Origin: an uncultured Spirochaetales bacterium
GTDB lineage: Bacteria; UBP6; UBA1177
Assembly (NCBI GenBank): GCA_902780365.1
Contig: CACZFE010000028.1
Span: forward strand, 1 to 32,667
Length of the DNA: 32,667 nucleotides
Direction of reading: 5' to 3'
Below the pieces are notes generated by a model. It was not told the origin of the DNA, searched no databases, and saw only the letters and a list, made by a program, of their open reading frames with translations. Within the stretch, counting starts at the first letter, position 1, and the number at the start of each line of letters is the position of its first letter. A program made the position numbers and the translations under genes. Positions 8,777 to 31,773 of this stretch are shown piece by piece.

Positions 8777-8787
8777 TCGGGTCTCCC

Positions 8788-9138
8788 TTATTTTTTCATC
8801 CGATGAAAATCTTCCGTAGCATCGTAGACAAGATTTATCGTAACAGGATCTCCTGCCGCGACAACAGATTCGGAAATTTTTTCCCCTTTTTCACTTTTTG
8901 CCGGAGCGAAAAAGAAAATAAAAAAGACGATCACAAAAACAGCGGCTACCGCCGAAACCGCTCTCGAAAGCGCGATGAATTTGGCGCGTCTTTTTCTGAT
9001 GGCAGCAGCTTCTTCAAGCCGTGCATCGATTTTTTTCTGGAATTCTTCACCGATCTCATCATCAGATTTTCTGTAGGATTTCAACAGCTTGCCGTATTCT
9101 TCAGGCATTTTTTCAAGATTTTCTCTTTCCTTTTCCAT
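8788..9138 (-). CDS. single-pass membrane protein, unknown function
   Basis: I chose the ATG at 9138, with GAGG 5 nt upstream. A charged N-terminal helix is followed by one TM segment (AVSAVAAVFVIVFFIFFFAP). Confidence 0.5.
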   Translation of the reverse strand: MEKERENLEKMPEEYGKLLKSYRKSDDEIGEEFQKKIDARLEEAAAIRKRRAKFIALSRAVSAVAAVFVIVFFIFFFAPAKSEKGEKISESVVAAGDPVTINLVYDATEDFHRMKK

Positions 9139-9247
9139 AACGACCTCAACAAACAACAATAATACGACTTCGAAAGTCTCAAAAAGTTACATTTTTATTT
9201 ATTTTTTTGCGCGTTTTTGCTAAAAAGCGCTGTTTTCGGAGGTGAAA

Positions 9248-10153: not shown

Positions 10154-10574
10154 AAGTATCTGCGGATATCCGCAGGAAGCGACAGTCGAAGTGACTTCGC
10201 AGACCGGTGCGAAAAAAATCTTTTCTGTAGGAATCGCCGAAACCGCCCGTGAGCACGAACAAGGGCTCATGTACTGCAAAAAAATGGAAAAAAATCAAGG
10301 ACTTTTCTTCATTTTCGACACCGAAAAACCCCACTTTTTCTGGATGAAAAACACATTAATAGAACTTGCAGTGATATTTGTTGACCGCGATTTCAATGTA
10401 ATAGCCGTGAGAAAAGGAGTTCCTCTCAGCAAAACGACCCTTCCCAGCGTGAAACCTTCGCAATTCGTCCTTGAAGTGAACTGGGAAGCGGGAAAATCGA
10501 TCCTTCCCGGCGACAAAATCAAGTTGAAAATGAAGTGCCCCCTCTCTATGACCTCATCCCCAGCCCTTCTCTGA
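10086..10574 (+). CDS. DUF192 family protein with signal peptide
   Basis: TTG start, 162 aa, with the DUF192-type core FFWMKNTLIELAVIFVDRDFNVIAV. It overlaps the thiL 3' end by 68 nt. The last ~10 codons lie inside repeat A. Confidence 0.65.
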   Translation: MKLLAKTALSTLILLNFFLISAESICGYPQEATVEVTSQTGAKKIFSVGIAETAREHEQGLMYCKKMEKNQGLFFIFDTEKPHFFWMKNTLIELAVIFVDRDFNVIAVRKGVPLSKTTLPSVKPSQFVLEVNWEAGKSILPGDKIKLKMKCPLSMTSSPALL

Positions 10575-10625
10575 CCTCACCTCTAACCCCTCTCCAGTGT
10601 GGCGAGGGGAACCTGCGAAGGGAGA
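10545..10625. repeat. Mosaic GC-rich hairpin repeat, copy A
   Basis: Positions 10575-10611 (CCTCACCTCTAACCCCTCTCCAGTGTGGCGAGGGGAA) match the reverse complement of 28474-28510 at 35/37. Internal hairpin is CCCCTC-N11-GAGGGG. The copy lies between the convergent DUF192 and ugd genes. Confidence 0.85.
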
Positions 10626-10629
10626 AATT

Positions 10630-11871
10630 TCAGTCTCTTCTAAAGAAATCTCTGGTGTAGACTTTGTCTTTCACATCGTCGAGAACGGTGTCGTAGCGGT
10701 TCGCGATGATCGCGTCACAGCTTTTCTTGAAGCGTTCGATGTCGTTGACGACAAGCGAGCCGAAGAAAGTCGTGCCCTCTTCCAAAGCGGGTTCATAGAC
10801 TATCACCGTCGCACCTTTCGCCTTGATGCGCTTCATTACCCCCTGGATTGAACTCTGGCGGAAGTTGTCGCTGTTGCTTTTCATCGTGAGGCGGAAAACT
10901 CCTATCGTTATCGGGCGTTCCTTCGAGGCATTCCACATCGAAGAGCCCGTGTAATATCCGGCCTTTGCGAGCACTCTGTCGGCAATGAAATCCTTTCTCG
11001 TGCGGTTGCTTTCGACTATCGCCTGGATCAGGTTTTCAGGAACGTCGGCATAGTTTGCAAGGAGCTGTTTCGTGTCTTTCGGAAGGCAGTAGCCGCCGTA
11101 TCCGAAGGAAGGGTTGTTGTACTGGTCGCCGATCCTCGGATCCAGGCAGACTCCTTTGATGATATTCGCCGTGTCGAGCCCTTTCATTTCGGCGTATGTA
11201 TCCAGTTCGTTGAAGTAACTTACACGAAGCGCGAGGTATGTATTTGCGAAAAGTTTTACCGCCTCCGCTTCCGTAAAATCCATGAAAAGCGTCGGAACAT
11301 CCTTCTTTTCGGCACCTTCTTGCAGAAGTTTTACAAAAATCTCGGCTGCATCGCGTGTTTTTTCGTCGCATCCCGCGATTATCCTGCTCGGATAAAGGTT
11401 ATCGTAAAGCGCTTTCGACTCACGCAAAAATTCCGGACTGAAAATTATGTTCTCACTCCCCTTCTTTTCGCGGATGTGTCTCGTAAAACCTACAGGGATA
11501 GTCGATTTTATCACCATTATCGCGTTTTTGTTGACGCTCATCACAAGGTCGATGACCGCTTCTACCGCGCTCGTATCGAAGAAATTCTTCTGCGGATCGT
11601 AGTTCGTCGGAGCCGCAATAATGACAAAATCAGCATCGGCATAAGCGCTTTTCCCGTCAGTCGTCGCTTTCAGACTCAGCTCCTTTTCAGCTAAATACTT
11701 CTCGATGTAGTCATCCTGGATCGGCGACTTCTTTTCATTAAGAAGTTTCACCTTTTCAGGAACAATATCGACCGCCGTTACATCGTGATGCTGAGAGAGC
11801 AGGACAGCAAGCGAAAGCCCTACATAACCGCTTCCGGCAACAGCTATTTTCAGATCTTCGAATCTGCGCAT
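10630..11871 (-). CDS. ugd: UDP-glucose 6-dehydrogenase
   Basis: ATG at 11871 lies 5 nt after GGAGG. Contains the Rossmann motif [10 protein letters not shown] and the catalytic Cys motif [11 protein letters not shown]. Confidence 0.9.
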
Positions 11872-11884
11872 GATCACCTCCGTA

Positions 11885-12017
11885 AAAACCTCACCCTTTT
11901 TATCTCCCTCTCAGTCGCTTTGCGACAGCTCCCCCAAAGTGGGAGCCAAGCTTGCCTCTCACTCAGGGAGAGGTGGCAGCCAAAGGCTGACGGAGAGGGC
12001 AAAGAGGTCAAACCGCC
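11885..12017. repeat. Mosaic GC-rich hairpin repeats, copy B (in the putative ugd 5' leader)
   Basis: Positions 11953-11981 are identical (29/29) to the reverse complement of 29852-29880. The modules CTCAG-GTCGC-TTT-GCGAC-AGCTCCCC and GGCAGCC-AAA-GGCTG..GGAGAGGGC are colinear with copy E. Confidence 0.85.
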
Positions 12018-12048
12018 GCATTATACTGATTTTTTTAGGAAATGCGAG
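12018..12048 (-). promoter_or_regulatory. 31-nt promoter-like block facing ugd, with a TATAAT -10
   Basis: The minus strand reads CTCGCATTTCCTAAAAAAATCAGTATAATGC. This matches 31703-31733 on the plus strand at 29/31. Confidence 0.35.
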
Positions 12049-12283
12049 AGGGGATTTTATAAAGCATCATAATTTTTTTCGAATATTCTATTGCTTTTTC
12101 ACAACAACAGCATATAATGCGAATCCAGAAAGAACGTCGCCGGACAATGCGAGGGTTTTTTAACCAGCATATTTGTTATGTGGTAGTCGCACCGGGGGTT
12201 CTTTCATTTTTTTCTGCACAAAATCGTGTCTTTTTCAATTCTACGGAATCAGTCATGCGGTTTAGATTGTGGTTTTAGATTAA

Positions 12284-13189
12284 TTAAAAAATCCCTTTTC
12301 CAGATATTTTTCCTAGGACCTTTATCGCCTCGTCATAAGGAACTTTTTTGAACAATAATTTCTCTGTTGTAGCGATATAATCGGCTTTATACGGCTCTTT
12401 TTCTATAATTTCCGCAAGAAGCCTGTTGATTTCCACACCATCCTGTGCAGACAGGCAGATACTACGCTGTTTTCGTTCTTCTCTGACACGATTTACGAGC
12501 TTTTTCAAAGACTCGTCCGGCTTAACAACCTCAAGCAATTTATAAATATCGTATATGTGTCTGGAATGCTGTTCGCATTTACCGTCAAGATAGTAGTCAC
12601 ACAAAGCAAAAACTTTGTCGACAAACGTCCTTTCCGGCTTTTGGACTTTTATCGGGAACGGTCGAATATCGCTCGTATCCATAAAATCCAGCGCATTCTC
12701 TTTGCTCAGATAATCAAAAATATAATTGCCAACATTTCGCGTTTCGGTGGGATATATGCCTGTAAAAACAGCGGTTTCCACAATCAGTTTGCGGTTTACA
12801 GCGGAAAAAGCAAAAACCGACGGATAACCGATCACATAACGGTTAAAATCCCTGCGGCTGCGTATCTCGTCAAAATTCTCAAGATTCAGTCCGGAAACGT
12901 TTACAGCCTCAACAATACCTTCTTTCAGTTTTCTCCTCCGCCCTTCGGAAGGTTTCTCATTTTCTTCAAATATCGACAGATCTATGTCTTCCGAAAAACG
13001 GTCTATCAAACGGTAGCATTTTGACAACGATGTTCCGCCTTTAAAAATAATGTCAGGTACCAGTGAAGCTATGCTTCTAAGCAGCAGAGTAACATAGTAA
13101 TCCTTTTCTATAATCGCGGAGTCTATGCCGTATTCCGCAGAAACTCTGAGAAGAATATCCTCAAAAATATCACGATTTTCATGCAACAC
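12284..13189 (-). CDS. AbiEii/AbiGii-family nucleotidyltransferase toxin (type IV TA / abortive infection)
   Basis: 301 aa with the DUF1814-type motif FKGGTSLSKCYRLIDRFSEDIDLS. It is paired with an upstream AbiEi-like gene. Confidence 0.8.
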   Translation of the reverse strand: MLHENRDIFEDILLRVSAEYGIDSAIIEKDYYVTLLLRSIASLVPDIIFKGGTSLSKCYRLIDRFSEDIDLSIFEENEKPSEGRRRKLKEGIVEAVNVSGLNLENFDEIRSRRDFNRYVIGYPSVFAFSAVNRKLIVETAVFTGIYPTETRNVGNYIFDYLSKENALDFMDTSDIRPFPIKVQKPERTFVDKVFALCDYYLDGKCEQHSRHIYDIYKLLEVVKPDESLKKLVNRVREERKQRSICLSAQDGVEINRLLAEIIEKEPYKADYIATTEKLLFKKVPYDEAIKVLGKISGKGIF

Positions 13190-13796
13190 TGTATATCACC
13201 TCGCTCACAATAAGGTTTCGCATAGCCTTGTCCGGGAAAAACCGGCTGTATTCCGTAATCATGTTCCGGGTAATCCCCTTTTCTTTTATGAACCGGCAGA
13301 CCGTTTTTTTTCTTTCGTCATCAAAAAACTCTGCCGATGTGAAGTTCATCAGTTCCAGAAGTTGCATAACATCGGAATTTTCTTTTGTGATTTTCGTTCT
13401 GGAACGCCTCAGGATCACTTTCTGGGAATTGACAGAAATCTCCCTCAATTTTGTCTTCTCATTGTTGGTATAAATTTCAATGCTGTTAGGCATCTGAGTC
13501 GAGAGATTCATCAGGTTGAGCAGCGTATTTCCCGAATAATATCCAATAGTATCATTCCCGTCAGATATATATTTTTTCAGAATGACTTTTCTCGGATCAA
13601 GAAGAGTTTTCCCTAAAAAAGTCGTCTTCGGAATATAACAGACACCTTTGTCATATCTGACAATCTGCCCGTTTTTGCAAAGACGGCTCAATTCCTTGAA
13701 TATCCATGGTCTGGAATAATCCTCGAACTGGATATCACTCGTAAAAATCGGCTCGTTATAACCATATTTTTTCAACAAAAACTCATATAAACCCAT
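13179..13796 (-). CDS. AbiEi-family antitoxin / transcriptional regulator
   Basis: ATG at 13796 lies 7 nt after GGAGG. The N-terminal wHTH-like segment is ...IFKELSRLCKNGQIVRYDKGVCYIP. It overlaps the toxin gene by 11 nt. Confidence 0.75.
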   Translation of the reverse strand: MGLYEFLLKKYGYNEPIFTSDIQFEDYSRPWIFKELSRLCKNGQIVRYDKGVCYIPKTTFLGKTLLDPRKVILKKYISDGNDTIGYYSGNTLLNLMNLSTQMPNSIEIYTNNEKTKLREISVNSQKVILRRSRTKITKENSDVMQLLELMNFTSAEFFDDERKKTVCRFIKEKGITRNMITEYSRFFPDKAMRNLIVSEVIYSVA

Positions 13797-13893
13797 GGTG
13801 CGACCTCCATTTTCCACATTTTATATCATATCATACCTTGTAAGTCAATAAAAATATAATTTGCGGAGATTTAGGTGAAAAACGCATCCGTAG

Positions 13894-13915
13894 GGACGTA
13901 ACCTGATACGTCTCC
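13894..13915. repeat. GAGACG-N10-CGTC hairpin module upstream of abiEi
   Basis: GGACGTAACCTGATACGTCTCC. Over the central 20 nt its reverse complement differs by one base from 31463-31482. AAAAACGCATC lies adjacent at both sites. Confidence 0.7.
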
Positions 13916-13988
13916 AACCCAATTTTTCAATTATTTTCGATATTTTCGTGAGATTTTTGAAGAATTCCCAGAGAAAAGAGGCGTGTTT

Positions 13989-15752
13989 TTATTCCTCCAC
14001 TATCGCCCCGATATCCAAGATTCTTGAAAAATATTGTGCTCCGGCCTTTGTCAGATGTCTGCAATCCTGGCTTATGAATTTGTTGTCATCGGTAAAAACT
14101 CTGACCATGCCGTTTTCATCGCTGACAAGAGACATCAGATTTATGTAATGATCTCCGTATTTTTCTGATTCTTCCAAGTTCTGTTTCATCAAGCCTTCCG
14201 GCATTTTTACTTTCTGCCGGAAATAGCCTTCCGTGCTGCGTTTGGCATATATTATGCCGTTGGATTCACCGAAATTCTTGTTGCCGATGACATAAAGTTT
14301 TTCTTTTGGAACTGCGTTTGACATATATTCGGGAACTCCAACATAGCTTGGGCCTTCGGCATAAAAAACCATATCGGCTTTTTCAATCAGAGAGGCATAT
14401 TTTTCGACATTTTCTTCGGTATTTCTCAAATATGAAAGTTCAAGAACAGCTTTTTTATCATATTCTCGCAATATGTTCACCCAGTCTCTGCCAAAACTGT
14501 TGCCGAAAACAAGAATGTGTTTTTTTGCAGAATCTTCGAAACCGATTTTCATATGACGAGGAATATCAACATACTCTGCATGCATTCCTCTTTTGACATT
14601 GTCTTTGCTGACATTAAGTTCTGGAACATCCCTGACAACTCCGGCATTCAGATAAATCGCAAAACTTACTCCGCAAACGAGTGCCGCAAACACCAAATTG
14701 AAAATGGCGAAGTATAATCTGCTCCTCGTAGGTGATGTGAATTTATCTAATTTGGATTCAACAAAGCGGTATGAAATCTCGGAAAGGAGAATTGTTACAA
14801 TCAGAAAAACTGAGAAACTGACCGCATCCTGATTCGGGAAAACTGAATAAAATAAGAAAGCTATCACGAACTGATGCCAGATGTAGATGCTGTAGCTTCT
14901 TTTACCAAGCGCAGCGAAAAAATTAGCAAAAGCATTGAAAATTCTGTTTTGTATCTGCATATTGTTTCCGGCAAAAACAACTGCAGAAGTCGCCGCCACA
15001 ACAGCTAAAAGCATGAAAGCAGGAGAAATGATCGCAACTCTTGAGCACATCATCAAAAGAATCACAACCAAAGAAACAGCCATGATGCAAAGAGCCTTTT
15101 TGCGTGAAATCTCTTTTGCCGTCAAAGCAATCAAGCCTCCTGCAGAAAGCTCAAAAACTCTGAAAGGGAGATAGTAGAATTTCCATTCCGTAGGCAGTGG
15201 AAGCAGAAACAGAACAAGTGAAATCACACTCATAGCAACACCTGCAACCAGCAGACCTTTTTTCGTGTTTTTCAACAACTTCACACAAATGAGATACAAC
15301 AGCGGAAGAATCACATAAGCCTGCATCAGAACATCGACATACCACATGTGCATCAGCGGTTTGTAAAGATTGACGACATCCCAGTAATTTTTGGTCGTTA
15401 TCGCCTGAAGCACATTATTTGCAAAAAGTGTCGAAGCAACAGCCGACTCCGCTAGATTTTCATAATTATCAGGCAACATCGTAAAATAACCAATAACGAC
15501 AGCAACTGCAGAAACAAGCAGAATCAAAGGCCACAAACGCACAGCTTTTTTGAAGATAAAACTCCAGTAATTGAAAGTTTTTGCCTCAAATTGCTTTGAA
15601 AGCCCCTTCACAAGCAGATATCCGCTGATAACAAAAAACACATCGACACCAAGATATCCATAAGGAAACCACGCGCCGAAATGATATAAAACAACGGCGA
15701 CAATCGCCAGACCTTTAAGGAAATCGAGGATTATGGAACGGTTGGTGGACAT
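13989..15752 (-). CDS. acyltransferase family 3 O-acyltransferase with C-terminal SGNH-like domain (OafA/OatA type)
   Basis: 587 aa. The N-terminal part is a multi-TM acyltransferase_3 region (LDFLKGLAIVAVVLYHF..GVDVFFVISGYL). The C-terminal part is a soluble domain (ILVFGNSFGRDW). Confidence 0.85.
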   Translation of the reverse strand: MSTNRSIILDFLKGLAIVAVVLYHFGAWFPYGYLGVDVFFVISGYLLVKGLSKQFEAKTFNYWSFIFKKAVRLWPLILLVSAVAVVIGYFTMLPDNYENLAESAVASTLFANNVLQAITTKNYWDVVNLYKPLMHMWYVDVLMQAYVILPLLYLICVKLLKNTKKGLLVAGVAMSVISLVLFLLPLPTEWKFYYLPFRVFELSAGGLIALTAKEISRKKALCIMAVSLVVILLMMCSRVAIISPAFMLLAVVAATSAVVFAGNNMQIQNRIFNAFANFFAALGKRSYSIYIWHQFVIAFLFYSVFPNQDAVSFSVFLIVTILLSEISYRFVESKLDKFTSPTRSRLYFAIFNLVFAALVCGVSFAIYLNAGVVRDVPELNVSKDNVKRGMHAEYVDIPRHMKIGFEDSAKKHILVFGNSFGRDWVNILREYDKKAVLELSYLRNTEENVEKYASLIEKADMVFYAEGPSYVGVPEYMSNAVPKEKLYVIGNKNFGESNGIIYAKRSTEGYFRQKVKMPEGLMKQNLEESEKYGDHYINLMSLVSDENGMVRVFTDDNKFISQDCRHLTKAGAQYFSRILDIGAIVEE

Positions 15753-15822
15753 TGGGGACTCCTTTTATTTTATCAGTTTTTTTGCCACTATAATCAAATC
15801 AAGGATAGCAATCAAAAGATTC

Positions 15823-16839
15823 TTAGTTTTGAGCCTTTATCTCTTTACCAGAAAATGTCCCGTAAGGTTTTCCTGACACATCTCCAGTTTTATAATAATC
15901 TGCCAACATCTTCAAAACAATATCAATATCTTTTTCATCTTCAATGAGAAGATTGCCATTATCGACCTTCAGGTTATCTCCATATTTTTTACAAACATTT
16001 TTCATTTTGCTTATAGCCTTATCATCAATATTTCGATAATTGCCTATTCTGGCGATACGAACAAGCTTTTTATGCAATGACGGGGTTGTTTCTATTTGTT
16101 CTGCTATCTTTTCTAATCCTTTTATCTTATTGGTTTGTTTTAATTGCTCAACAACTTTTTTAGCTTCTTCCTTATACTCTTCTTGTAACCCAACAATTTG
16201 TTCAAAACACCCCTTTTTGATAACATAAAAAATTTCGTCATAATAGATGCAGTCTATTTGTTTATCAAGATTTACAGTTTCACCTTTTAGCAATTCCAAT
16301 TTTTGATTTGTTGTATCAAAGAATGTACGAATTATTCTTAACCAACTCTTCCCTTCTCGCTCATCAACAGCAACTTTACCGGATTGTATTTTTCTAAATG
16401 TATAAATCCAATCCTTGGCTGTTAAATCGTTAAAACCGACGCAATAAGCCCACAATTCATCATTGTTTTGAAGTATTGCTTCAATACTTTGCATTTTATC
16501 CGGGCTTTTTTGCAGTTGATTTGTGACGACATCGGCAAATGAGAAGACTTTATTTTTCATTGAATATGTAAACAAATGCTCTGTGTCATCAGAAATGACA
16601 TCATAATCTATCATTTCAAAGTTCTTTTTTATCGTTATATTTAATTGCTCTTGAGATAAATCATATAGATACTGCCTGATTTCATCATTGATATCTACTT
16701 GATAAACCTTGAATAGATACTTGTCCATTACCTTGCTTGATTTTTTAATGTTTTCTTTAAGCATTCTGGTAATGAAAAACAACTTAAGATCAACCACTTC
16801 AGTAGATGTAATTTTGTCCAAAATTTCTTGTAATGTCAT
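15823..16839 (-). CDS. soluble protein, KwaB (DUF4868)-like by size and context; family not verifiable here
   Basis: 338 aa with no TM segment and no catalytic motif recognised, plus a charged helical stretch LQEEYKEEAKKVVEQLKQTNKIKGLEKIAEQIE. The start overlaps the stop of the upstream 4-TM gene (ATGA). The DNA is very AT-rich. Confidence 0.5.
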   Translation of the reverse strand: MTLQEILDKITSTEVVDLKLFFITRMLKENIKKSSKVMDKYLFKVYQVDINDEIRQYLYDLSQEQLNITIKKNFEMIDYDVISDDTEHLFTYSMKNKVFSFADVVTNQLQKSPDKMQSIEAILQNNDELWAYCVGFNDLTAKDWIYTFRKIQSGKVAVDEREGKSWLRIIRTFFDTTNQKLELLKGETVNLDKQIDCIYYDEIFYVIKKGCFEQIVGLQEEYKEEAKKVVEQLKQTNKIKGLEKIAEQIETTPSLHKKLVRIARIGNYRNIDDKAISKMKNVCKKYGDNLKVDNGNLLIEDEKDIDIVLKMLADYYKTGDVSGKPYGTFSGKEIKAQN

Positions 16840-17471
16840 GTTGTTTCCCTATGTCTATCTGCAAAAAACAATTTAAAACCAATAGAGTATATTTTTACAA
16901 TACTTCCTTCTTCTATGTTTGCATTCCTCATAATAATCATTCCGCTTTTTCTTTTCCCGTTTTGCTCCTCATATTCAATTTCAAATATGGAATATTTAAA
17001 GTTTATAACCGGATTTACAAGTAACAGGCTGGAATTGATGTATATGCGGTATATAATAAATAACAAAAACAACAGAGCAAATACTTCATATACAGTATTG
17101 AAGCCTTGAAATATAAACGGGATAATGTAAGTTGCAATGTATCCTATGGAGTCGCCGTTTCTATTGGAAATTTTTATGATAGTAACATTGTCTCCATTCT
17201 TTACATTCTTTTGTAAATTAAAAAACAATAATTTACAACCAACCAAAGACAGCATGGATATGATTATGAGCAATACTGAAAGTCCAAACTTAATAAAAAA
17301 AGTCCCAACCGTTGCTTGAGAAATTCCACACCAACATAAAAATTGAGCATTGTTGCAAATCTGCTTGAATGCAATTAGTATGAACAGTGGTAAGTAGGAA
17401 GTAAGAAAAAGCACCAGTTTGGCTATTCCATACAGGTTATTATGCTTCGTTTGTTTTTCACTCGTTCCCAT
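16836..17471 (-). CDS. four-TM membrane protein, KwaA-like by architecture
   Basis: 211 aa with four hydrophobic helices: LVLFLTSYLPLFILIAF, FGLSVLLIIISMLSLVG, IGYIATYIIPFIF and VFALLFLLFIIYRIYI. A soluble tail of about 60 aa follows. Confidence 0.5.
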   Translation of the reverse strand: MGTSEKQTKHNNLYGIAKLVLFLTSYLPLFILIAFKQICNNAQFLCWCGISQATVGTFFIKFGLSVLLIIISMLSLVGCKLLFFNLQKNVKNGDNVTIIKISNRNGDSIGYIATYIIPFIFQGFNTVYEVFALLFLLFIIYRIYINSSLLLVNPVINFKYSIFEIEYEEQNGKRKSGMIIMRNANIEEGSIVKIYSIGFKLFFADRHRETT

Positions 17472-17540
17472 CTTCCATCCTTATTTCCACTACATTTTCT
17501 TCTGATTGTAAAAACTGAGCATTGTTTAATCCTATTTCCG

Positions 17541-19680: not shown

Positions 19681-19692
19681 ATATTACACCTA

Positions 19693-21219: not shown

Positions 21220-22373
21220 ACATCGCTGATCAAGTTAAAGCAATTCAAACCGATAAGGACAAGTAAAACTAAAACTTGAAAAACTGCGGAAGTTACTGTT
21301 GTTGCGGTTACTTGTTTCTGTTTATTTATTGCTCCCAATGTCGGCCAGCCATAAATCATGGAAAGAAAACCAAAAAACATTACCGGAGTCAGCAAACGTA
21401 ACAAATATGAGGCCTCTGTGTATTTAGCCCCACCTACAATCAAAAGAGCTTCTTTGGCTACCAAAAAAGTAAATATGCAACCTACAGCAATTATCGGCAG
21501 GAAAATTTTTACAGTTTTCTGAATTATACTGCGCTTTTTAGAAAGAACCATCTGAGGATAAATTCCCGATATAATAGGAGTGTAGAAAGATTGAACTGCT
21601 CCTATTATTTGCGCGCAGACGCTCCAATATGCAACATTCACCGGATCTATAAAAATACCTATGAGCAAAGTGTTTAACGCACCGAAGGCTGATGTGGCCA
21701 TATTAGATACAAAATATACGGCCGAATCTTTCAATTTTTTTACCGCAGAGCGCAATCCGTCGGGACAGATCTTTACGTTCAGTTTTTTCAACTGAATCCA
21801 GACAAGAACTATTGCTACCATGGAGCCTATGATATTCAGAATCGGGATCCAAAGGATATCCGCGTCGCTTCTAACGACAACGAAAGTCAGCAAAGTTGCA
21901 ATCCCGCGCATAACAACAAAACGGATCGTGATGATCTCCATTTTCTCAATACCACGGAAATAAAAATCCATCAGAAAAACTGTGAGGAATACCGTCACGA
22001 AGGAAAGCACCGTATAAAGCATATTTTGATTGAGAATTGGAATAAAAATCATAGCTGCAATCAATATGACAAAAGCAAATAAACATAGGATCAGACGTGC
22101 AACAAAAATATTTCCGATTTCACGGTTTATTTCATCCTGTTTTCCCAAAACCAGAACAATGGCTTTTGTTCCCGAAAGCATGAAACCAAAATCCACCATC
22201 AACTGCATATATTGCATCGTAGCTTTCACATAAGATACAACACCATAAGTCTCCACGCTAAGAACACGTGTCAAATACGGCAGAGTAACAAGAGGGAATA
22301 CCATTTTGGCAATGTTCAACAAATAGAGCATAGAAACATTTTTTACAATTTTGTTTTTAGAGGTTTGCATCAA
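21213..22373 (-). CDS. wzx: oligosaccharide flippase (Wzx / MOP superfamily)
   Basis: 386 aa, polytopic. The N-terminus KNVSMLYLLNIAKMVFPLVTLPYLTRVLSVETYG is typical of Wzx. Confidence 0.75.
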   Translation of the reverse strand: MMQTSKNKIVKNVSMLYLLNIAKMVFPLVTLPYLTRVLSVETYGVVSYVKATMQYMQLMVDFGFMLSGTKAIVLVLGKQDEINREIGNIFVARLILCLFAFVILIAAMIFIPILNQNMLYTVLSFVTVFLTVFLMDFYFRGIEKMEIITIRFVVMRGIATLLTFVVVRSDADILWIPILNIIGSMVAIVLVWIQLKKLNVKICPDGLRSAVKKLKDSAVYFVSNMATSAFGALNTLLIGIFIDPVNVAYWSVCAQIIGAVQSFYTPIISGIYPQMVLSKKRSIIQKTVKIFLPIIAVGCIFTFLVAKEALLIVGGAKYTEASYLLRLLTPVMFFGFLSMIYGWPTLGAINKQKQVTATTVTSAVFQVLVLLVLIGLNCFNLISDVC

Positions 22374-24885: not shown

Positions 24886-25065
24886 ATTTTTAAGAATCCC
24901 CACTCACGATTACAACAAGCGAATTCAATTTTGCAAAGATATGGAATCACTAAAAAAAGTCAACATTCGACAATTCCTTAAAAAATATCGAATTTCAAAA
25001 AAAAATCGCTATACTCTCCCAGTTTCAAGTTTTTTCTTAATTGTGAACTTTTAAGGTTGATTGCA
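24886..25065. promoter_or_regulatory. Divergent intergenic control region between the two glycosyltransferase transcription units
   Basis: 180-nt AT-rich gap between oppositely oriented genes. It contains a TATACT -10-like hexamer upstream of the plus-strand gene and an ATTCGA-N17-TCGAAT inverted repeat. Confidence 0.3.
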
Positions 25066-26265: not shown

Positions 26266-26833
26266 CCTGACCTTCAGATTCATGCGTCTTCTTGGACTTA
26301 ATTTGTCTGAGGAAGAATATGGACAAATTTCCTTGTTCGGAGCAATCTATAGAGCGTATTTAGGTTTCAGAAACGCCTTTTTACTCAAATACTGCATGTA
26401 TTCCGTATTGTTAGGCTCTTTTAACTATCGAAAAATCAGACCTTTTTTATGGCGTAAAATGGGAGCAAAAGTAGGTAAAGACTGCTTTATCGGATATGAA
26501 GTCTGGATGGATGTCACTCATTCCGATTTAATAGAATTGGAAGACCATGTGCATGTGGCCAATCGTTGCTTGCTCCTGTGCCATCAAAGAGATCTTTCGC
26601 ACTACTTTGTCGGTGACGATTATGCAAAACTTTCGTATAGAAAGAGTAAGATTGTGTTAAAGAAAGGCTGTCTTATAGGAATGGGAACCATAGTCTGCCC
26701 TGGAGTCACAGTCGGTGAAGGAGCCATTGTCGGAGCAGGATCATTGGTTACAAGAGATATTCCGGCATGGTGTGTCGCAGTAGGAAATCCCGCTAAAGTA
26801 GTAAGACAAATACCCAAGAAAGAAGAAAAATGA
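26252..26833 (+). CDS. hexapeptide-repeat O-acetyltransferase (WcaF / maltose-acetyltransferase-like)
   Basis: 193 aa with left-handed beta-helix repeats: GCLIGMGTIVCPGVTVGEGAIVGAGSLVTRDIPAWCVAVGNPAKV. Confidence 0.8.
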   Translation: MKKLSLTFRFMRLLGLNLSEEEYGQISLFGAIYRAYLGFRNAFLLKYCMYSVLLGSFNYRKIRPFLWRKMGAKVGKDCFIGYEVWMDVTHSDLIELEDHVHVANRCLLLCHQRDLSHYFVGDDYAKLSYRKSKIVLKKGCLIGMGTIVCPGVTVGEGAIVGAGSLVTRDIPAWCVAVGNPAKVVRQIPKKEEK

Positions 26834-27690
26834 GAATCCTTACTTTTGACATAGAAGAGTGGTTTCATCTTTTGGATAACCCATCAACCAAAACAGAAAA
26901 TGAATGGGAAAAATACGAGGTAAGAATTTATCAAAATGTTGACAAAATTCTTGAAATCATTGAAAAAACCGACACTAAAGCAACGTTTTTCATCATAGGC
27001 TGGATTGCAAAAAAATATCCGGACATCGTAAAGCGTATTTCCGAAAAATATGAAATCGGATCACATACCTGCTACCATCAGTTGGTTTGGCAACAGAATC
27101 AAAAAGAATTCAAAGAAGATTTGTCAGCTTCAATCAAACTTTTGCAAGATATTTCCGGCAAACCGGTAAAATATTTCAGGGCTCCCGGATTTTCAATCAG
27201 AACAAGCGAATTGTGGGCATTTGAAGTGATAAAAGAATGCGGAATAGAAATAGACTGCTCGATCTTCCCTGCACATCATGCCCACGGAGGGATCCCACTT
27301 TTCCCAAAACCATATCCTTCAATAATTCAATACAAAGGAATCAAACTGAAAGAATTTCCATGTGTATTTAAAAATATCGGAAAACACCACATTGTTTTCT
27401 CTGGTGGAGGATATTTCAGAATTATTCCTTATTGGCTGCTCAAAAAATGGACGTCAAAATGTAACGAATATCTTCTTTCCTATATTCACCCAAGAGATCT
27501 GGATGCAACCCAACCAATGATTAAGGATTTGCCTTTAAAAAGGAAATTCCGCTCCTATATCGGCATAAAAAATGCAGCGAACAAATTGGAAAAATGGCTC
27601 ACAGACTTTGATTTCACAGATATTGAAACGGCCGACAAATCTTTTGACTGGAACAAAGCTCAGATCGTTAATTTTGATCAGATAAAATAA
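26830..27690 (+). CDS. polysaccharide deacetylase family protein (DUF3473-type)
   Basis: 286 aa with an N-terminal ILTFDIEEWFH, plus ATFFIIGW and SHTCYH metal-site-like motifs. ATGA overlap with the preceding gene. Confidence 0.7.
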   Translation: MRILTFDIEEWFHLLDNPSTKTENEWEKYEVRIYQNVDKILEIIEKTDTKATFFIIGWIAKKYPDIVKRISEKYEIGSHTCYHQLVWQQNQKEFKEDLSASIKLLQDISGKPVKYFRAPGFSIRTSELWAFEVIKECGIEIDCSIFPAHHAHGGIPLFPKPYPSIIQYKGIKLKEFPCVFKNIGKHHIVFSGGGYFRIIPYWLLKKWTSKCNEYLLSYIHPRDLDATQPMIKDLPLKRKFRSYIGIKNAANKLEKWLTDFDFTDIETADKSFDWNKAQIVNFDQIK

Positions 27691-28562
27691 GCATTTATTG
27701 AAAAAGATTTTTGGGCTGGAAGTCGCTTCAAATTCCAATACTTCTTCACCCCTCTCGCCGTATACCAGCACATGAAATATGCTGCTTCAAACAGGTTCAA
27801 ACCGACATGGCGGTAAGTTTTCCATGTTCTGAATGCAGCTTTCATCTTGTTTCTCGTCATCGAGTTCGTAGACAAACGGTACGAGAGCAGAGGTTCATCC
27901 AACCCGATGATTTTACACCCTGATTTAGCCATTTTTAGCCACATCGCAAAATCACTGCTTATATCATCACCGATGACATAGAACTGCTCGTAAAGCTCCT
28001 TTTTCACAAGAACAGACGAGTTGGAAATAATATCCTGCTTCAAAAGCTCGCGGTATGAAATGGTGCATGGAACATGAAGCTGCCAGTTTATGTGATTTCC
28101 GTCGTTGTCGATGAATGCGGAACCGGTGAAAACAAGGTCGGCATTCTCTTTTTCGGCGAGAGCGAACTGCTTTTCAAGTTTGCAACTGTCCCAGATATCG
28201 TCGCTGTCAAGCACCGCGATCCACTCGCCTTTCGCAGCTTCAAGAGCTTTTTTGCGGGTGAGGGAGACACCGAGATTGCTCTCGTTACTGATAACACGGA
28301 TGCGCGGATCGGATTTCGCGAAAGAATCAGCAATTTCCAAGGTGTTGTCTTTCGAACAATCGTTCACCACAATCAGTTCCCAATCGGTATATGTCTGCGC
28401 CAGTACGGAACGGATCGCCGCTGCGATTTTAGACCCCTCGCCTTTTGGAGACGTTTCATGAAACGTCTCTACATTCCCCTCGCCACACTGGAGAGGGGTC
28501 AGGGGTGAGGTTCCCGCATTGTATGCCGCCATGATTATGGTGATCAATGGTCTAGTCATCAT
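27678..28562 (-). CDS. glycosyltransferase family 2 carrying an in-frame repeat-element insertion near the N-terminus
   Basis: Shows GT-A features: IIMAAYNA, LIVVNDCSKDN and AVLDSDDIW (DxD). TSPLTPLQCGEGNVETFHETSPKGEG is intercalated between AAYNAG and SKIAAAIRSVLAQTY. Confidence 0.8.
   Translation of the reverse strand: MMTRPLITIIMAAYNAGTSPLTPLQCGEGNVETFHETSPKGEGSKIAAAIRSVLAQTYTDWELIVVNDCSKDNTLEIADSFAKSDPRIRVISNESNLGVSLTRKKALEAAKGEWIAVLDSDDIWDSCKLEKQFALAEKENADLVFTGSAFIDNDGNHINWQLHVPCTISYRELLKQDIISNSSVLVKKELYEQFYVIGDDISSDFAMWLKMAKSGCKIIGLDEPLLSYRLSTNSMTRNKMKAAFRTWKTYRHVGLNLFEAAYFMCWYTARGVKKYWNLKRLPAQKSFSINAYFI
28434..28511. repeat. Mosaic hairpin repeat, copy C, inside the GT2 CDS
   Basis: Three parts. 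28474-28510 is the reverse complement of the copy A core (35/37). 28448-28469 is the perfect 22-nt palindrome GAGACGTTTCATGAAACGTCTC. 28434-28446 (CCCCTCGCCTTTT) is identical to 29780-29792. Confidence 0.85.
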
Positions 28563-28568
28563 TACTTC

Positions 28569-29525
28569 TCAACACTTTCCATCCGAATACCCTTGATAAG
28601 CTGATTTCAGAATCTTCTCAAATCGGATTCTGATTCCCTGCTTATAATATTCCTTCCTGACTGCACTGCAAATCGGAATCCCTTCATAGGATTCAGGAAC
28701 ATCATCAATCAGTTTATATATATCCTGAAGATGGTTTTCTATCAGCGGAACATTTCTTTTTACAGCATCCCGCAAACCCGGGCAATCCATCATAATAAGT
28801 TTTGGACCGCTGAGAATATGACCATCTACTTCATAAGCCGTTACTGAAGCCCCCAGAACATCTCTCTCCAACTTATCTTTTTGCATATGCATTACTATTT
28901 GTTCATCCGATGTTTTATTGGAAAAAGCGTTCCCGTTATCATACACAGGAGCTATTTTGTAAATTTCCCCATTGAAAACCAACCCCCAGTTGCCGTTATT
29001 CCGATCATTGTTATCGATAAGAATATCAACAACCACCATGTCCCAAAAATGTTCCTTCAAGCCTTCGACATTTTTGAGATGACGATTCTCTTCCAAATGA
29101 AACAAAAGCTCCGGCAGATTTACTCTGTCACCTGATTTTGATTCAGCAAAACCCTCAAGTTCTTCTGTCCGTTCTTCACTATACGCATTTTTTATTGTGC
29201 GTATTTCAGACAATCCTCCGCGAATTACGCAAAAATCCTTGCAGGCAACAACTACTTTGCCTTTCTTTATGCCAAGCAGCGTCTTGTGGACATCGTAGCC
29301 CAGAATCTCGTAGACATGACTCCCGAGATATTCCGACAGCGGTGCGGTCGTATAGGAAATATTACGAGCATTATTCCTCATTCCTCGAGTAGTCTTAGGA
29401 TACTTTATAAACCAAAACTCCCCGTCAATCAGTATACCGTCTTTGTTTCCGCCATTACCACCGTATATTCCGTCACGGTTGCTGAGAGGAAAAAGTTTTT
29501 CGTCATCAAAATTGTATATCTGCAT
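28569..29525 (-). CDS. HipA-family (HipA_C-like) Ser/Thr kinase, putative toxin
   Basis: I chose the ATG at 29525; the track ORF begins at an upstream GTG. 318 aa with the G-rich loop YGGNGGNKDG, the catalytic-loop-like ILIDNNDRNNGNWGLVF, and KIAPVYDNGNAF matching the HipA AP-x-YD motif. Confidence 0.6.
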   Translation of the reverse strand: MQIYNFDDEKLFPLSNRDGIYGGNGGNKDGILIDGEFWFIKYPKTTRGMRNNARNISYTTAPLSEYLGSHVYEILGYDVHKTLLGIKKGKVVVACKDFCVIRGGLSEIRTIKNAYSEERTEELEGFAESKSGDRVNLPELLFHLEENRHLKNVEGLKEHFWDMVVVDILIDNNDRNNGNWGLVFNGEIYKIAPVYDNGNAFSNKTSDEQIVMHMQKDKLERDVLGASVTAYEVDGHILSGPKLIMMDCPGLRDAVKRNVPLIENHLQDIYKLIDDVPESYEGIPICSAVRKEYYKQGIRIRFEKILKSAYQGYSDGKC

Positions 29526-29527
29526 TT

Positions 29528-29761
29528 TTACCACTCCGGGTATCTGGAGACAATAATATCCCACTGTTTTTGATTCATATGCCCACTGGCTACAGATGCT
29601 TTGCACAACATATCTACGGCTCTTGCCATACCGAAATACTGCGGATCGCCTTCCCGATCATATCTTTCGCAGTCTTCGATTGTATTTCTAAGCACTTCGC
29701 CATGAATAGGGAATTCGATTTTTACATCATCATTGATCCAACGGTATTGCACTGATCTCAT
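29528..29761 (-). CDS. 77-aa protein of unknown family, candidate cognate antitoxin/partner of the kinase
   Basis: AAGGAG lies 6 nt upstream of the ATG at 29761. Its stop TAA (29528-29530) is 2 nt from the kinase ATG. No HTH is recognisable. Confidence 0.5.
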   Translation of the reverse strand: MRSVQYRWINDDVKIEFPIHGEVLRNTIEDCERYDREGDPQYFGMARAVDMLCKASVASGHMNQKQWDIIVSRYPEW

Positions 29762-29980
29762 TTACATCTCCTTTCTATTCCCCTCGCCTTTTGAAGACAT
29801 TTGACCCCTCAGACAACCTGCGGTTGCCGTATAGCCCTCTCCGGCAGCCCCGGCTGCCACCTCTCCCTGAGTGAGAGGCAGGGAAAGACTTGGCCCGCCC
29901 TTCTCAGCTCCTACTTCAGGGGAGCCTATAGAGGTGCCCGCATTGTATGCCGCCATAATTATAGTGATAGTCGGTGTCAT
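29762..29980 (-). pseudogene. Orphan GT2 5' stub fused to repeat copy D
   Basis: Encodes MTPTITIIMAAYNAGTS, close to the N-terminus of the intact GT2 (ITIIMAAYNAGTS), followed only by repeat-derived sequence. It ends with TAA directly before the 77-aa gene ATG. Its start overlaps the upstream gene stop (ATGA). Confidence 0.6.
29778..29935. repeat. Mosaic GC-rich hairpin repeats, copy D
   Basis: 29852-29880 is the reverse complement of 11953-11981 (29/29). 29803-29828 is the reverse complement of 31673-31698 (24/26, both mismatches in the hairpin loop). 29780-29792 is identical to 28434-28446. Confidence 0.85.
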
Positions 29981-31446
29981 TTTTCAACCACCTCCCAATG
30001 ACCGCCTTTGTCTGGACCGATACGGCGGATAAGATTTTCTTTTTGCATTTCGCTCAACATCTTTTTGACAGTCGTATGACCTAATCCCAGTTCTTCTTCC
30101 AATTTTACTATTGTGATAAAACTATCGTTTTTAATGGCGGCAAGTATTTGGCGGATTTTTTCTGGCCACTTTTCTGGCCACTTTTCTGGCCATTTTTCTA
30201 TTTTCTGGTCACTTTCTGTACCCTTTTCATTTCCCTGTATATTTCCTTCCTCTCCGGCATTCAATTCAAAAGGTGCGGCATCTATCTTGTTGAACGGAAT
30301 TGTGACTACGATAAAATTCTTTTTGACAGCGATTGTATCGCGTCCGTATGCCTTGACGATCGTTGGAACACCGCGCCCTGAACGCTCGCTAAGCCTGAGC
30401 TGAAGGAAAATCGAGGCAAGTGCTTCGTTTACGGGAATGCTGACTCCATTATAAAAACCTTCTAGATCCTGTTCGATTCCAAGCCCGCCGTGGGAGACGA
30501 TTTCTATTCTGTCGGTGAACACGCTTATCATCGGGGCATTCATGGCAAGCCATTTGTTGTGAATGAAAGCATTCAAAAGTGCTTCGTGGAAAGCCTCGTA
30601 ATCAAAAAGAGGAACATCTTTGCGTTCCGAAATACGCCCGCGTTCGTCAGCCTGAATGATGTTTATAGCGTCGCCGTATTCCAGTATTTTATCCATGGAA
30701 TACAAAATGCAGGAATTTCCGTATTCTTTCACGGAAAAAAGAGTGTCAGCCTTGGTTTTTCCGCTGAAAACAGAAACGCGGATCGGAATATCATTTGAAT
30801 CGGCAAGCAGGAGTGCCATTATGTTGTAGCGGCCGTCTGCTGTCAGCAGTTTGAGCGTTTTCTTAAAGGTGTCACGTCTGAGTCTGATCCCTTTTGCACC
30901 GTAATACAAAAAGAGTTTCTCGAAAGTCAGATCCTGCGCATAATCAGGTGAGGCAGTGTTCACGATAGTAGGAATTCCGTTTGAAAGCACGTTCAGCAGA
31001 CGGATTTCCCACTCCGGAAATTTTGAAATCTTTTCCTTGCTTGAACCTATCCGGATAAACGTCTGGTTCATGAACTTTGTCGGAACGGATTTCGCGGCAG
31101 GAACAGTCAGCAAAACAATTCTTTTGCCGGAAATTTCAGCTTCATCGACTTCAAACGCAAGACTCGGCTTTAAGTGGCGTGCAAGGTAATGTTTGTAAGG
31201 TTCGTGCTCGATATCCTTGTCGAAATTAACCGTTGTTCCGGTAATTTCATGCGTTTTGTCACTCACACCCCAGACAATATAGCCGTATTCCCGCCCGCTC
31301 AAAGCCGCGCCGTTGGAAATCGCGGAAATATATTCACCGATTTCGTCCTTTGAAAACCAGTTCTCTTTGAAATCGAGCCATTCGTATTCGTGCGGAAGCA
31401 AAATCAGGTTCGTGACAGTGTCAATTATGTTGAGGGCGGGTGTCAT
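29977..31446 (-). CDS. AlbA_2 (Schlafen-like) / HATPase_c_4-like / C-terminal wHTH protein, of the class often annotated as RecG-like transcriptional regulator
   Basis: 489 aa. N-terminal HEYEWLDFKENW...AISNGAALSGREYGYIVWGV. Middle FHEALLNAFIHNKWLAMNAPMISVFTDRIEIVSHGGL. C-terminal ITIVKLEEELGLGHTTVKKMLSEMQKENLIRRIG. AAGGAG RBS is present. Confidence 0.8.
   Translation of the reverse strand: MTPALNIIDTVTNLILLPHEYEWLDFKENWFSKDEIGEYISAISNGAALSGREYGYIVWGVSDKTHEITGTTVNFDKDIEHEPYKHYLARHLKPSLAFEVDEAEISGKRIVLLTVPAAKSVPTKFMNQTFIRIGSSKEKISKFPEWEIRLLNVLSNGIPTIVNTASPDYAQDLTFEKLFLYYGAKGIRLRRDTFKKTLKLLTADGRYNIMALLLADSNDIPIRVSVFSGKTKADTLFSVKEYGNSCILYSMDKILEYGDAINIIQADERGRISERKDVPLFDYEAFHEALLNAFIHNKWLAMNAPMISVFTDRIEIVSHGGLGIEQDLEGFYNGVSIPVNEALASIFLQLRLSERSGRGVPTIVKAYGRDTIAVKKNFIVVTIPFNKIDAAPFELNAGEEGNIQGNEKGTESDQKIEKWPEKWPEKWPEKIRQILAAIKNDSFITIVKLEEELGLGHTTVKKMLSEMQKENLIRRIGPDKGGHWEVVEK
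30158..30193. repeat. 12-nt tandem repeat x3 (TTTTCTGGCCAC), coding (EKWP)3
   Basis: Units at 30158-30169, 30170-30181 and 30182-30193 (last base differs), followed by a degenerate copy. It lies in the linker before the wHTH. Confidence 0.9.
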
Positions 31447-31462
31447 TTATTTATCTCCTTCT

Positions 31463-31484
31463 GAGACGCATCAGGTTACGTCTC
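31463..31484. repeat. GAGACG-N10-CGTCTC hairpin module immediately upstream of the AlbA_2-gene RBS
   Basis: GAGACGCATCAGGTTACGTCTC. Related to 13894-13915 (reverse complement) and to the palindrome at 28448-28469. Confidence 0.7.
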
Positions 31485-31547
31485 TACAAAAAAACGCATC
31501 TCGCGCGTGAAACATATTGAAATTAGTGAAAAAGTCAACAAATACAA

Positions 31548-31702
31548 ACCCCTCCGTCACTGCGTGACACCTCCCAGACCCCTCAGCCGCTTTGCGGCAG
31601 CTCCCCTACCTCAGGGGAGCCTTGACGGGGAGGCAAGAATCGGTAGAAAGGCGCCCCTAAATTAGGGGAGCTGGCAACCAAAGGTTGTCTGAGGGGTCTC
31701 TT
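31548..31702. repeat. Mosaic GC-rich hairpin repeats, copy E
   Basis: Contains the hairpins GTCAC-TGC-GTGAC, GCCGC-TTT-GCGGC, GCTCCCCT-ACCTC-AGGGGAGC, GCGCCCCT-AAATT-AGGGGAGC and GGCAACC-AAA-GGTTGTC+TGAGGGGTC. Module order is colinear with copy B. Confidence 0.85.
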
Positions 31703-31733
31703 CTCGCATTTCCAAAAAAATTCAGTATAATGC
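31703..31733 (+). promoter_or_regulatory. 31-nt promoter-like block facing the capE/fnlA-like gene, with TATAAT at 31726-31731
   Basis: CTCGCATTTCCAAAAAAATTCAGTATAATGC. It matches the minus strand of 12018-12048 at 29/31 and lies 43 nt upstream of the ATG at 31774. Confidence 0.4.
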
Positions 31734-31773
31734 ACCGTTTTTGTTGATGTTCACTTTTTAAACGAGGTTGAAG

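Follow-up and report, generated by a model that had tools for sequence, protein, structure and literature searches.

Clusters of palindromic DNA units of probable REP/BIME kind in a polysaccharide and defence island of an uncultured Spirochaetales bacterium

The locus and its GC-rich patches

We analysed a stretch of DNA of 32,667 nt (the window) from an uncultured Spirochaetales bacterium (GTDB UBP6; UBA1177; assembly GCA_902780365.1, contig CACZFE010000028.1), in which seven GC-rich patches of short hairpin units are found: the clusters A, B, C, D and E and the smaller patches F and G. We consider it probable that these patches are clusters of palindromic DNA units of the kind represented by REP (repetitive extragenic palindromic) sequences, BIMEs (bacterial interspersed mosaic elements) and REPINs (REP doublets forming hairpins), and that they are non-coding and non-autonomous and are gained or lost as small blocks. 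An earlier, sequence-only reading had noticed the repeats, which are real, but its count of five composite copies was too low, the seven patches including F and G, which hold only one type of unit, here called delta.

The left 10.5 kb of the window is core genome, with the genes for CoaE, FadL, a peptidase, Xer, ThiL and DUF192, and is syntenic with relatives. The FadL-type outer-membrane gene suggests a diderm organism. Homology to the relatives stops at 10538, inside the DUF192 stop codon, and it is there that cluster A begins; it is the left edge of the island. To the right of this position lies a polysaccharide locus (UDP-glucose dehydrogenase, epimerases, Wzx, Wzy, glycosyltransferases, an acyltransferase and a CapD-like gene) that is interrupted by anti-phage/toxin modules, namely AbiEii/AbiEi, the Kiwa pair KwaA/KwaB, a HipA-like kinase (PDC-M03A) and AlbA_2/HATPase_c_4. 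Downstream of DUF192, three different sets of genes are found in relatives whose ThiL is 90-95% identical (L202-L206, L495-L498), which makes this position a hotspot of recurrent integration or rearrangement. The features are as follows.

10538-10629, no strand assigned: cluster A, between the convergent ends of the DUF192 gene (plus) and the UDP-glucose dehydrogenase gene (minus)
11901-12004, plus: core of cluster B, with an alpha unit at 11904-11948 (plus) and an inverted beta unit at 11953-12003
12010-12054, minus: P1, an AT-rich block (…TTTCCTAAAAAAATCAGTATAATG…) reading towards B and the dehydrogenase gene
13890-13914, plus: F, a lone delta unit (GTAG + GGACG-N10-CGTCTC) that separates the end of the acyltransferase gene from the start of AbiEi
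28434-28511, minus: cluster C, with a delta unit at 28448-28472 (minus), a gamma unit at 28474-28511 (minus) and an extra CCCCTCGCC arm at 28434-28442
28507-28562, minus: first copy of the 5' end of the glycosyltransferase (GT2) gene, duplicated at 29931-29980 (direct repeat of 38 nt, 92% identity)
28569-29761, minus: HipA-like kinase (PDC-M03A) and its 77-aa partner, bracketed by C and D
29773-29930, no strand assigned: cluster D, a patchwork of truncated units in a stub open reading frame (ORF; 29762-29980, minus)
31463-31487, minus: G, a delta unit directly upstream of the start of the AlbA_2/Schlafen-like gene
31548-31700, no strand assigned: cluster E, with a truncated beta unit at 31549-31576, an alpha unit at 31578-31622 (plus) and an inverted alpha unit at 31651-31698 (minus)
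31697-31741, plus: P2, upstream of the CapD-like gene (ATG at 31774)

The GC content of the patches is 56-62%, as compared to 40% in the surrounding island and 46% in the core (cluster A: 0.58 vs 0.40 in the island). The modules are concentrated in, but not confined to, the polysaccharide/defence island; within the contig the concentration is about 15-fold, and none were found in 1-10537. AbiE is flanked by B and F, the HipA-like cassette by C and D, and AlbA_2 by D and G/E. The claim that the modules mark every module boundary was too strong, since both borders of the Kiwa cassette (15753-15822, 17472-17540) and the divergent promoter region 24904-25056 are free of them. The Kiwa pair (15823-17471, minus strand) is complete (KwaB E = 4e-124, KwaA E = 5e-73), has a GC content of about 30% and is inserted in the polysaccharide operon between acyltransferase and epimerase, with short AT-rich borders devoid of palindromic units.

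Three of the clusters extend or form ORFs, as the sequence-only reading had described. The DUF192 gene has lost its stop codon and reads about 12 codons into cluster A. Cluster C is an in-frame insert of 78 nt (26 aa) in GT2, placed after the IIMAAYNAGT strand. The stub that encloses cluster D has 72 codons and opens with the GT2 N-terminus, present here for a second time; only one of the six frames of D is free of stop codons.

When we compared the patches with one another, 11953-11981 matched the reverse complement of 29852-29880 at 29/29 positions (0 expected in 100 shuffles), exactly as had been reported. The match of A with C was also real; it covers 36/38 positions (10574-10611 against the reverse complement of 28474-28511; chance expectation 0) rather than 35/37. 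Between 29803-29828 and the reverse complement of 31673-31698, 24/26 positions agreed, and both mismatches fell inside the 3-nt loop (TGC vs TTT), again as reported. Such reverse-complement matches bear out the use of the modules in both orientations. The delta pattern, GTAGRGACG-N10-CGTCTC, had three copies in the window (13890-13914, 28448-28472 and 31463-31487) against 0 expected, and in shuffled sequence the chance expectation was 0 for every module type.

Contigs from other sequencing runs span A and B (X1), D (X5) and E (X7), indicating that the arrangement is not an assembly artefact. The depth in the source sample was 36 at A against a background of 6 (about 6-fold), while B was single-copy at 90% likeness or more. 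At the delta unit of cluster C, the metagenome depth was 485 vs 5.6.

Unit types, their structure and their distribution

Reading the patches against relatives resolved four types of unit, alpha, beta, gamma and delta. Alpha and beta share one design: a CCCCTC tag, a variable hairpin of 4-6 bp with a 3-nt loop, and then a fixed CTCCCC-loop-GGGGAG hairpin. In alpha this reads CC(C/T)CTCAG, small hairpin, CAGCTCCCC-loop-GGGGAGC; in beta, on its own strand, CCCTCTCCGNC, hairpin, CACCTCTCC-loop-GGAGAGG, the design being alpha-like and the words different. The gamma unit is a CCCCTCKCC-loop-GGMGAGGGG hairpin followed by TYAGRGGTGAGG (GGTGAGG tail), and delta is a GTAG(A/G)GACG-N10-CGTCTC hairpin. 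The lengths (delta 25 nt, gamma 38 nt, alpha 45 nt) agree with the 20-40 bp of REP stem-loop palindromes. When an inverted beta unit follows an alpha unit, the result is a quasi-palindrome about 105 nt long, of which cluster B is an example and cluster E an alpha/alpha version. Instead of freely interchangeable modules of 13-37 nt, as first proposed, there are four unit types that occur nested and truncated.

In cluster A, the gamma unit at 10574-10611 (ACCTCACC-TCTAA-CCCCTCTCC-loop-GGCGAGGGG) is preceded by a degenerate half copy at 10551-10573. The quasi-palindrome of cluster B is closed by CCCTCTC/GAGAGGG, in the manner of a REPIN or BIME, and its predicted fold is a closed multibranch (z -2.5). 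P1 and the start codon of the dehydrogenase gene (11871) flank it in the leader, where a gamma-tail fragment also occurs at 11888-11898; the composite shows 78% identity over 104 nt to L070, a locus of Acutalibacter. In cluster C (fold z -4.5) two copies of CCCCTCGCC surround the delta unit, which appears to be nested between them. Cluster D consists of a truncated gamma/delta junction (29777-29802), an alpha unit reduced to its left part and hairpin (29803-29829, plus), a beta unit (29833-29882, plus) and an alpha unit lacking the small hairpin (29899-29928, plus); as a whole, it folded no better than shuffles (z -1.2). In cluster E, the first alpha unit lies within an apparent beta-hairpin loop (CACCTCCC…GGGGAGG), and a spacer of 28 nt separates the inverted alpha pair, forming a REPIN-like inverted dimer (fold z -5.3). 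This cluster is 79% identical over 124 nt to a locus outside the window, L039. The sequence AATCGGTAGAA is present in the spacer of the inverted alpha pair in both the window (31630-31645) and L039 (about 3733-3750). The GGTAG core of this sequence is reminiscent of the ops/JUMPstart element in polysaccharide operons, yet it sits upstream of the promoter-like block.

The blocks P1 and P2 form a 45-nt inverted repeat beside B and E, are 84% identical and carry TATAAT. Locus L039 contains near-identical alpha/beta composites and also, at 5449-5486, a block identical to P1 at 38/38 positions, while the neighbouring genes differ. Among 494 loci the P1 block was seen in the window and L039 only, and none was found among the viral contigs scanned. 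P1 and P2 may act as promoters, to judge only from their conservation and the TATAAT box; the sigma-70 scan did not flag the shared block. In L039, a ThsA-Macro protein, and then a 339-aa protein with a Fic/Doc pair, lie between two module clusters (2641-5430), followed downstream by the shared promoter block, a composite, a T-run and a DegT aminotransferase gene.

We then examined the distribution of the units beyond the locus. One genome per species was scanned with the alpha pattern CTCAG-N11-15-CAGCTCCCC-N5-9-GGGAGC (20 fixed bases), and at least 138 matches were obtained against about 27 chance hits expected. The sources of the matches listed were gut and rumen Clostridia, Alphaproteobacteria including Caulobacter and Phenylobacterium, Deinococcus, Bifidobacterium, Dehalococcoidia, Bacteroidales and Negativicutes. 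Alpha and gamma patterns together were seen in more than 120 genome stretches from at least 8 taxon groups. The IMG/VR viral contigs held at least 119 stretches with the alpha pattern (about 3 expected) and at least 49 with the gamma pattern; for delta, with only 15 specified bases, hundreds of chance hits are expected in such a scan. A confinement of the modules to this locus as local duplications, which the sequence-only reading had named as grounds for giving up its proposal, is contradicted by these counts. Of the 138 alpha units listed, 123 were solitary, and most were intergenic. Alpha/beta composites were present in four Deinococcus genomes, and the Caulobacter composites found had no GANTC site. 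No units were found in 752 kb of unrelated gut contigs around dehydrogenase homologues (75-80% identical), none of which was an orthologous strain locus; the exact dehydrogenase protein was matched in the window's own contig only.

The stems of the units are conserved by compensation. In 100 of the 138 alpha matches, the unconstrained gap of the pattern held a perfect hairpin of at least 4 bp, as against 0.7% of shuffles, and the stem of this small hairpin had 30 different sequences among the matches. In an ungapped alignment of 58 distinct 13-nt gaps (290 cells), 94.8% of the hairpin cells were paired (76.6% in shuffles), the covariation score was 0.458 vs 0.10 (0/500 shuffles), and pairing fell to 21-49% when the partner was slid by 1-3 columns. 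One stem pair was A-T in 29, G-C in 17, T-A in 8 and C-G in 4 sequences, with zero mispairs; G-T occupied 2/290 cells. The ends of 23 alpha/beta composites paired over a mean of 8 contiguous bases, and beyond the conserved CTC/GAG, 6.3 of 9 positions of the closing helix paired vs 4.43 +/- 0.28 with shuffled partners (0/2000). RNAalifold, run independently, predicted the closing helix plus four hairpins inside it and counted nine compensated pairs. A lack of stem-preserving covariation, the other ground on which the proposal was to be abandoned, was therefore not what we saw.

This constraint looks as if it acts on DNA rather than RNA. Wobble pairs are scarce, and no orientation bias was seen: relative to the flanking genes of the genome loci, as called with a crude ORF caller, 21 units had the same and 17 the opposite orientation, and the viral loci behaved likewise. 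The same caller placed 38 units between tandem, 16 between convergent and 12 between divergent genes. Moreover, the composite has opposite orientations in the otherwise homologous leaders of the window and L039. Together, these observations point to a constraint at the DNA level, or on both strands. The stems are maintained by compensatory changes, while the RNA side of the suggested selection on RNA or DNA structure is disfavoured.

Known repeat families and the DUF559 nucleases

The units resemble REP, BIME and REPIN sequences in design. The latter are short, GC-rich, imperfect palindromes with an unpaired tag that occur singly or, with a short spacer, as inverted dimers of two diverged unit types (PMC3733652, PMC6006769, PMC3116915), with compensating stems, a mostly intergenic and occasionally in-frame placement, and a partner gene bracketed by units. 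The suggestion of a REP/BIME-like family stood as regards the mosaic design of hairpin units. The tag, however, agrees only in part: the REP tag GT[AG]G is found in delta only (GTAG in 3/3 copies), whereas alpha, beta and gamma carry CCCCTC or GGTGAGG, and alpha and beta have two hairpins along with the CCCCTC tag. Inverted units with a short spacer, as in REPINs, were found in B, E and the 23 composites, yet the listed alpha units were mostly solitary. REPs are placed mainly downstream of genes; in the window A is convergent, B and E are promoter-proximal and C is intragenic. REPIN/RAYT systems (RAYT, REP-associated tyrosine transposase) have been described as lineage-specific and vertically inherited (bioRxiv 10.1101/2022.05.22.493013), whereas the present family is common to distant phyla and abundant in phage contigs.

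Other families were also compared. Small, non-autonomous, strain-polymorphic elements with terminal complementarity are known as MITEs (miniature transposable elements with inverted repeats), such as Correia/NEMIS, ERIC and RUP. The ends of the present units, in contrast, are only 6-12 nt long and compensating rather than conserved, the duplications are of 0, 4 and about 5 nt, and a parent insertion sequence for the units was not found. In T4-type phages, promoter and hairpin blocks called PeSL reportedly flank accessory genes in hyperplastic regions (work attributed to Arbiol et al., 2010); they may mediate shuffling by recombination, and are said to be a feature of a single phage group, which has an early-promoter consensus of its own. 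In the present case, the promoter block is lineage-specific and the hairpin units are common to many phyla. The CGTC REPs of Alphaproteobacteria form a super-family of head-to-head dimers without a known dedicated transposase (PMC3733652); they have one stem of 8-9 bp that starts with A-T pairs and a CCA tail, as against the variable 4-6-bp stem and fixed hairpin of our units. Dozens of small non-coding repeats (SNRs) of Deinococcus radiodurans, with an 'unusual, mosaic structure' and absent in a relative, have been described (PMC1978522), and an overlap with the present family is possible, as is one with other named repeats, among them perhaps the CIR repeats of Caulobacter. Rickettsia palindromic elements (RPEs) and intragenic REPs are in-frame palindromic inserts that add 20-30 residues (PMC3733652 section 15; PMC2229807 table 1). 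Cluster C, which adds 26 residues to GT2, resembles the RPEs in this respect and has no sequence relationship to them.

The window contains no transposase, as had been stated, and no RAYT; for the loci fetched in the course of this work, no Y1-transposase profile search was made. When we looked in the fetched loci for genes bracketed by units, a different kind of gene recurred. Small genes for DUF559 (PF04480), a Vsr-like PD-(D/E)XK nuclease, numbered 8 in 1.85 Mb of loci selected by the alpha pattern alone, whereas 2.33 Mb of control loci had 0. For 7 of the 8, units were present at a distance of up to 400 nt, in most cases on either side of the gene. As a reciprocal test, 80 viral loci (L499-L578) were fetched by the DUF559 protein profile alone. 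A CTCYCC-loop-GGRGAG hairpin was found within 300 nt of the DUF559 gene in 41 of them, and in the same loci the density of the fixed hairpin was 2.08 per kb near the gene vs 0.185 per kb farther out. The type of unit varied with the host, alpha/beta being present in low-GC contigs, and gamma-like and other variants in high-GC contigs. The layout was constant (fixed hairpin, small hairpin, GAGGGG, DUF559 gene, CCCCTC, small hairpin, fixed hairpin), and the tags faced the gene in 23 vs 7 cases upstream and 17 vs 6 downstream. Many DUF559 genes were within a few hundred bases of the ends of viral contigs. This is expected if the flanking repeats break assemblies or define the predicted prophage borders.

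The bracketing of the DUF559 gene matches the configuration of REPs around RAYT genes; the enzyme is a different one, a PD-(D/E)XK nuclease and not an HUH Y1 transposase. A group I intron homing endonuclease is already among the members of the Vsr/DUF559 clade (PMC3424549, table), and no paper was found in the literature that links DUF559 to palindromic repeats or describes this repeat family. We put forward, tentatively, the possibility that alpha, beta and gamma are cognate DNA sites of DUF559 nucleases, in a second partnership of the REP/RAYT type that would seed cassette-exchange junctions across Clostridia, Negativicutes, Alphaproteobacteria, Deinococcus and phages. For the present organism this link is carried over from others, since neither the window nor L039 nor about 144 kb of relatives contained a DUF559 gene. 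A tblastn match to DUF559 at 10143-10244 (34 aa, E = 5e-4, in a tiny database) lies antisense within DUF192 and was judged spurious. If the link is true, it would supply a partner enzyme for RAYT-less 'orphan' palindromic repeats and a first biological role for a very common uncharacterised domain.

Gain and loss of the units, and alternative explanations

We observed differences in unit content between close relatives. One relative, L497 (91% ThiL identity), shares the left-hand synteny with the window. Between the ends of the Gate and CoaE genes it has a delta unit that is lacking in the window, and upstream of FadL a gamma unit of 37 nt, with a flanking GAAC direct repeat, that is likewise absent from the window. 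A tandem array of CAGGTCACACAGGAGACGTGT x ~2.5, ending in a delta-like …GTCACGTCTCTAC and lying upstream of FadL at 1640-1700 of L497, is also absent from the window. The relatives, about 145 kb in total, had two module clusters only, and those other than L497 had no units in about 125 kb.

Strain contigs showed turnover at the clusters themselves. Two of them, X2 and X4, which are 96-98% identical to the window in ThiL, DUF192 and the dehydrogenase gene, differ from it in their modules at two clusters: A is occupied by about 113 nt of a different module sequence, and B is replaced, with 138 nt of the window skipped. Such differences between closely similar strains point to turnover within this lineage. 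In the strain represented by X24/X25, 28436-29915 is absent and 28435 is joined to 29916 through 41 nt. The missing segment takes in C together with the first copy of the GT2 5' end, the HipA-like cassette and the greater part of D, showing that the cassette is an insertion. Its gain duplicated a segment running from CCCCTCGCCTTTTGRAGACRTTT to the GT2 5' end (the gamma/delta junction plus the GT2 5' end), and for this reason it looks like a Campbell-type or unequal crossover. Such a duplication is what homologous exchange, Campbell-type or unequal, at module-bearing patches would predict.

In related viral contigs, many filled/empty pairs were found, in which a block of 50-180 nt bearing units lies exactly between two genes. 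The cleanest pair is an insert of 106 nt in L228 vs L293, with identical flanks.

These observations suggest how the units might work. Their action would be on the level of DNA, where they would form hairpins or cruciforms when the DNA is single-stranded or supercoiled, and they would be copied or moved by an enzyme supplied in trans and not encoded in the window, the likeliest partner being a DUF559 nuclease (Vsr-like PD-(D/E)XK). Several copies in one island could then serve as short patches of homology where cassettes are exchanged, of which AbiE, the HipA-like kinase and AlbA_2 may be examples; for the HipA-like cassette, a Campbell-type or unequal crossover would have duplicated the gamma/delta junction and the GT2 5' end. 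The units would then mark where the AbiE, HipA-like and AlbA_2 cassettes entered the polysaccharide locus, and would offer a handle on the assembly of defence islands. Small palindromic repeats are usually regarded as lineage-specific curiosities, while here the same two-hairpin design and core words extend from Deinococcus to gut Clostridia to phages. As the units spawn spurious ORFs, lengthen real ORFs and break assemblies, their recognition also improves annotation.

Several points weigh against clusters of REP-like units that are gained and lost in this manner. Neither a transposase nor a DUF559 gene was found in the window, L039 or the relatives, and the DUF559 link is a statistical association from other organisms. 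Several of the phage insertions are larger blocks that also hold a ribosome-binding site, and such blocks could be recombined intergenic cassettes and not transposed units. Target-site duplications were inconsistent across the filled/empty pairs (0 nt, 4 nt and about 5 nt, the last imperfect), so that the chemistry of transposition is not readable from them. The copy number within the source genome looks low, and the gene-context surveys relied on the crude ORF caller applied to GC-rich DNA. Finally, covariation of the closing helix would equally arise if units inserted into the loops of pre-existing hairpins.

That the modules are instead cis-acting RNA elements selected gene by gene (terminators, attenuators, or stabilisers or insulators of mRNA) seems unlikely to us. 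The positions of some modules would suit such a role: B has a promoter-like block on one side and the start codon of the dehydrogenase gene on the other, the leader in L039 has the comparable order of promoter, composite, T-run and DegT, A lies between convergent gene ends, and phage units lie between tightly packed genes, often just before a ribosome-binding site. REPs also act as RNA elements in some genomes (PMC3733652). However, the terminator scan called no module, its only calls being at hairpins beside F (13898-13885) and G (31508-31494), and no T-run directly follows a module. Searches of Rfam 15 returned nothing below E = 0.1 for the module regions, the sole match in the window being DUF3800-VII at 12129-12209. 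Cluster C is translated, in the frame of GT2, and E is located upstream of its promoter; the units stand in both orientations relative to transcription, with the composite flipped between the window and L039 and wobble pairs nearly absent. A metatranscriptome run (X16) covered conserved coding pieces only and is uninformative on transcripts through the modules.

It is quite improbable that the modules are passive passengers of foreign cassettes, for example from Clostridia or their phages, and inactive in the present host. Alpha and beta are indeed commonest in gut Clostridia and their viral contigs, cluster B resembles the Acutalibacter composite, and no alpha or beta unit was seen in the sampled core of the lineage. 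As noted above, though, delta and gamma units are polymorphic in core regions of L497, and module content differs among strains with 96-98% identical flanking genes. In addition, the cassettes have 30-40% GC, as opposed to 55-60% in the Clostridia that carry most of the matches.

We find it very doubtful that a dedicated site-specific system uses the modules as recombination sites for the insertion of defence cassettes, whether as attC-like sites or in the manner of the T4-type promoter/stem-loop cassettes. The bracketing of AbiE, the HipA-like kinase and AlbA_2 by modules, the position of Fic/Doc between two clusters in L039, and the portable promoter block that accompanies the clusters would be in keeping with such a system. 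But neither strand of the window has an RYYYAAC…GTTRRRY pair as expected of attC, there is no integron integrase in the window, and the only tyrosine recombinase there is the syntenic XerC/D-like core gene. The Kiwa borders lack modules, and 123/138 listed units elsewhere are solitary. The duplicated coding segment of 38 nt at the HipA-like junction likewise fits homologous rather than site-specific exchange.

Chance similarity, duplication confined to the locus, or chimeric assembly at repeats could be considered since the shared segments are short (25-45 nt) and the contig is metagenomic, but is hardly credible and was refuted by the zero expectation for each module, the hundreds of copies elsewhere and the independent assemblies that reproduce the junctions.

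A few further features of the window were observed. The DUF3800-VII RNA motif (RF02967; 12129-12209, plus strand) scored 60 bits vs a threshold of 36 bits. It lies between B/P1 and the 3' end of AbiEii, convergent with AbiEii; there is no DUF3800 gene in the window, and the motif accompanies the AbiE pair instead. The window is 188 nt shorter than a public contig carrying the same genes (L001): about 46 nt are missing at about 8806, which breaks a 203-aa ORF called in L001, and about 132 nt near 21229. In the AlbA_2/HATPase_c_4 gene, 30158-30199 is a coding 12-nt tandem repeat (TTTTCTGGCCAC x3), at which the metagenome depth was 1217 vs 5.6 in the flanks, indicating that this coding repeat is common to very many paralogues or organisms.

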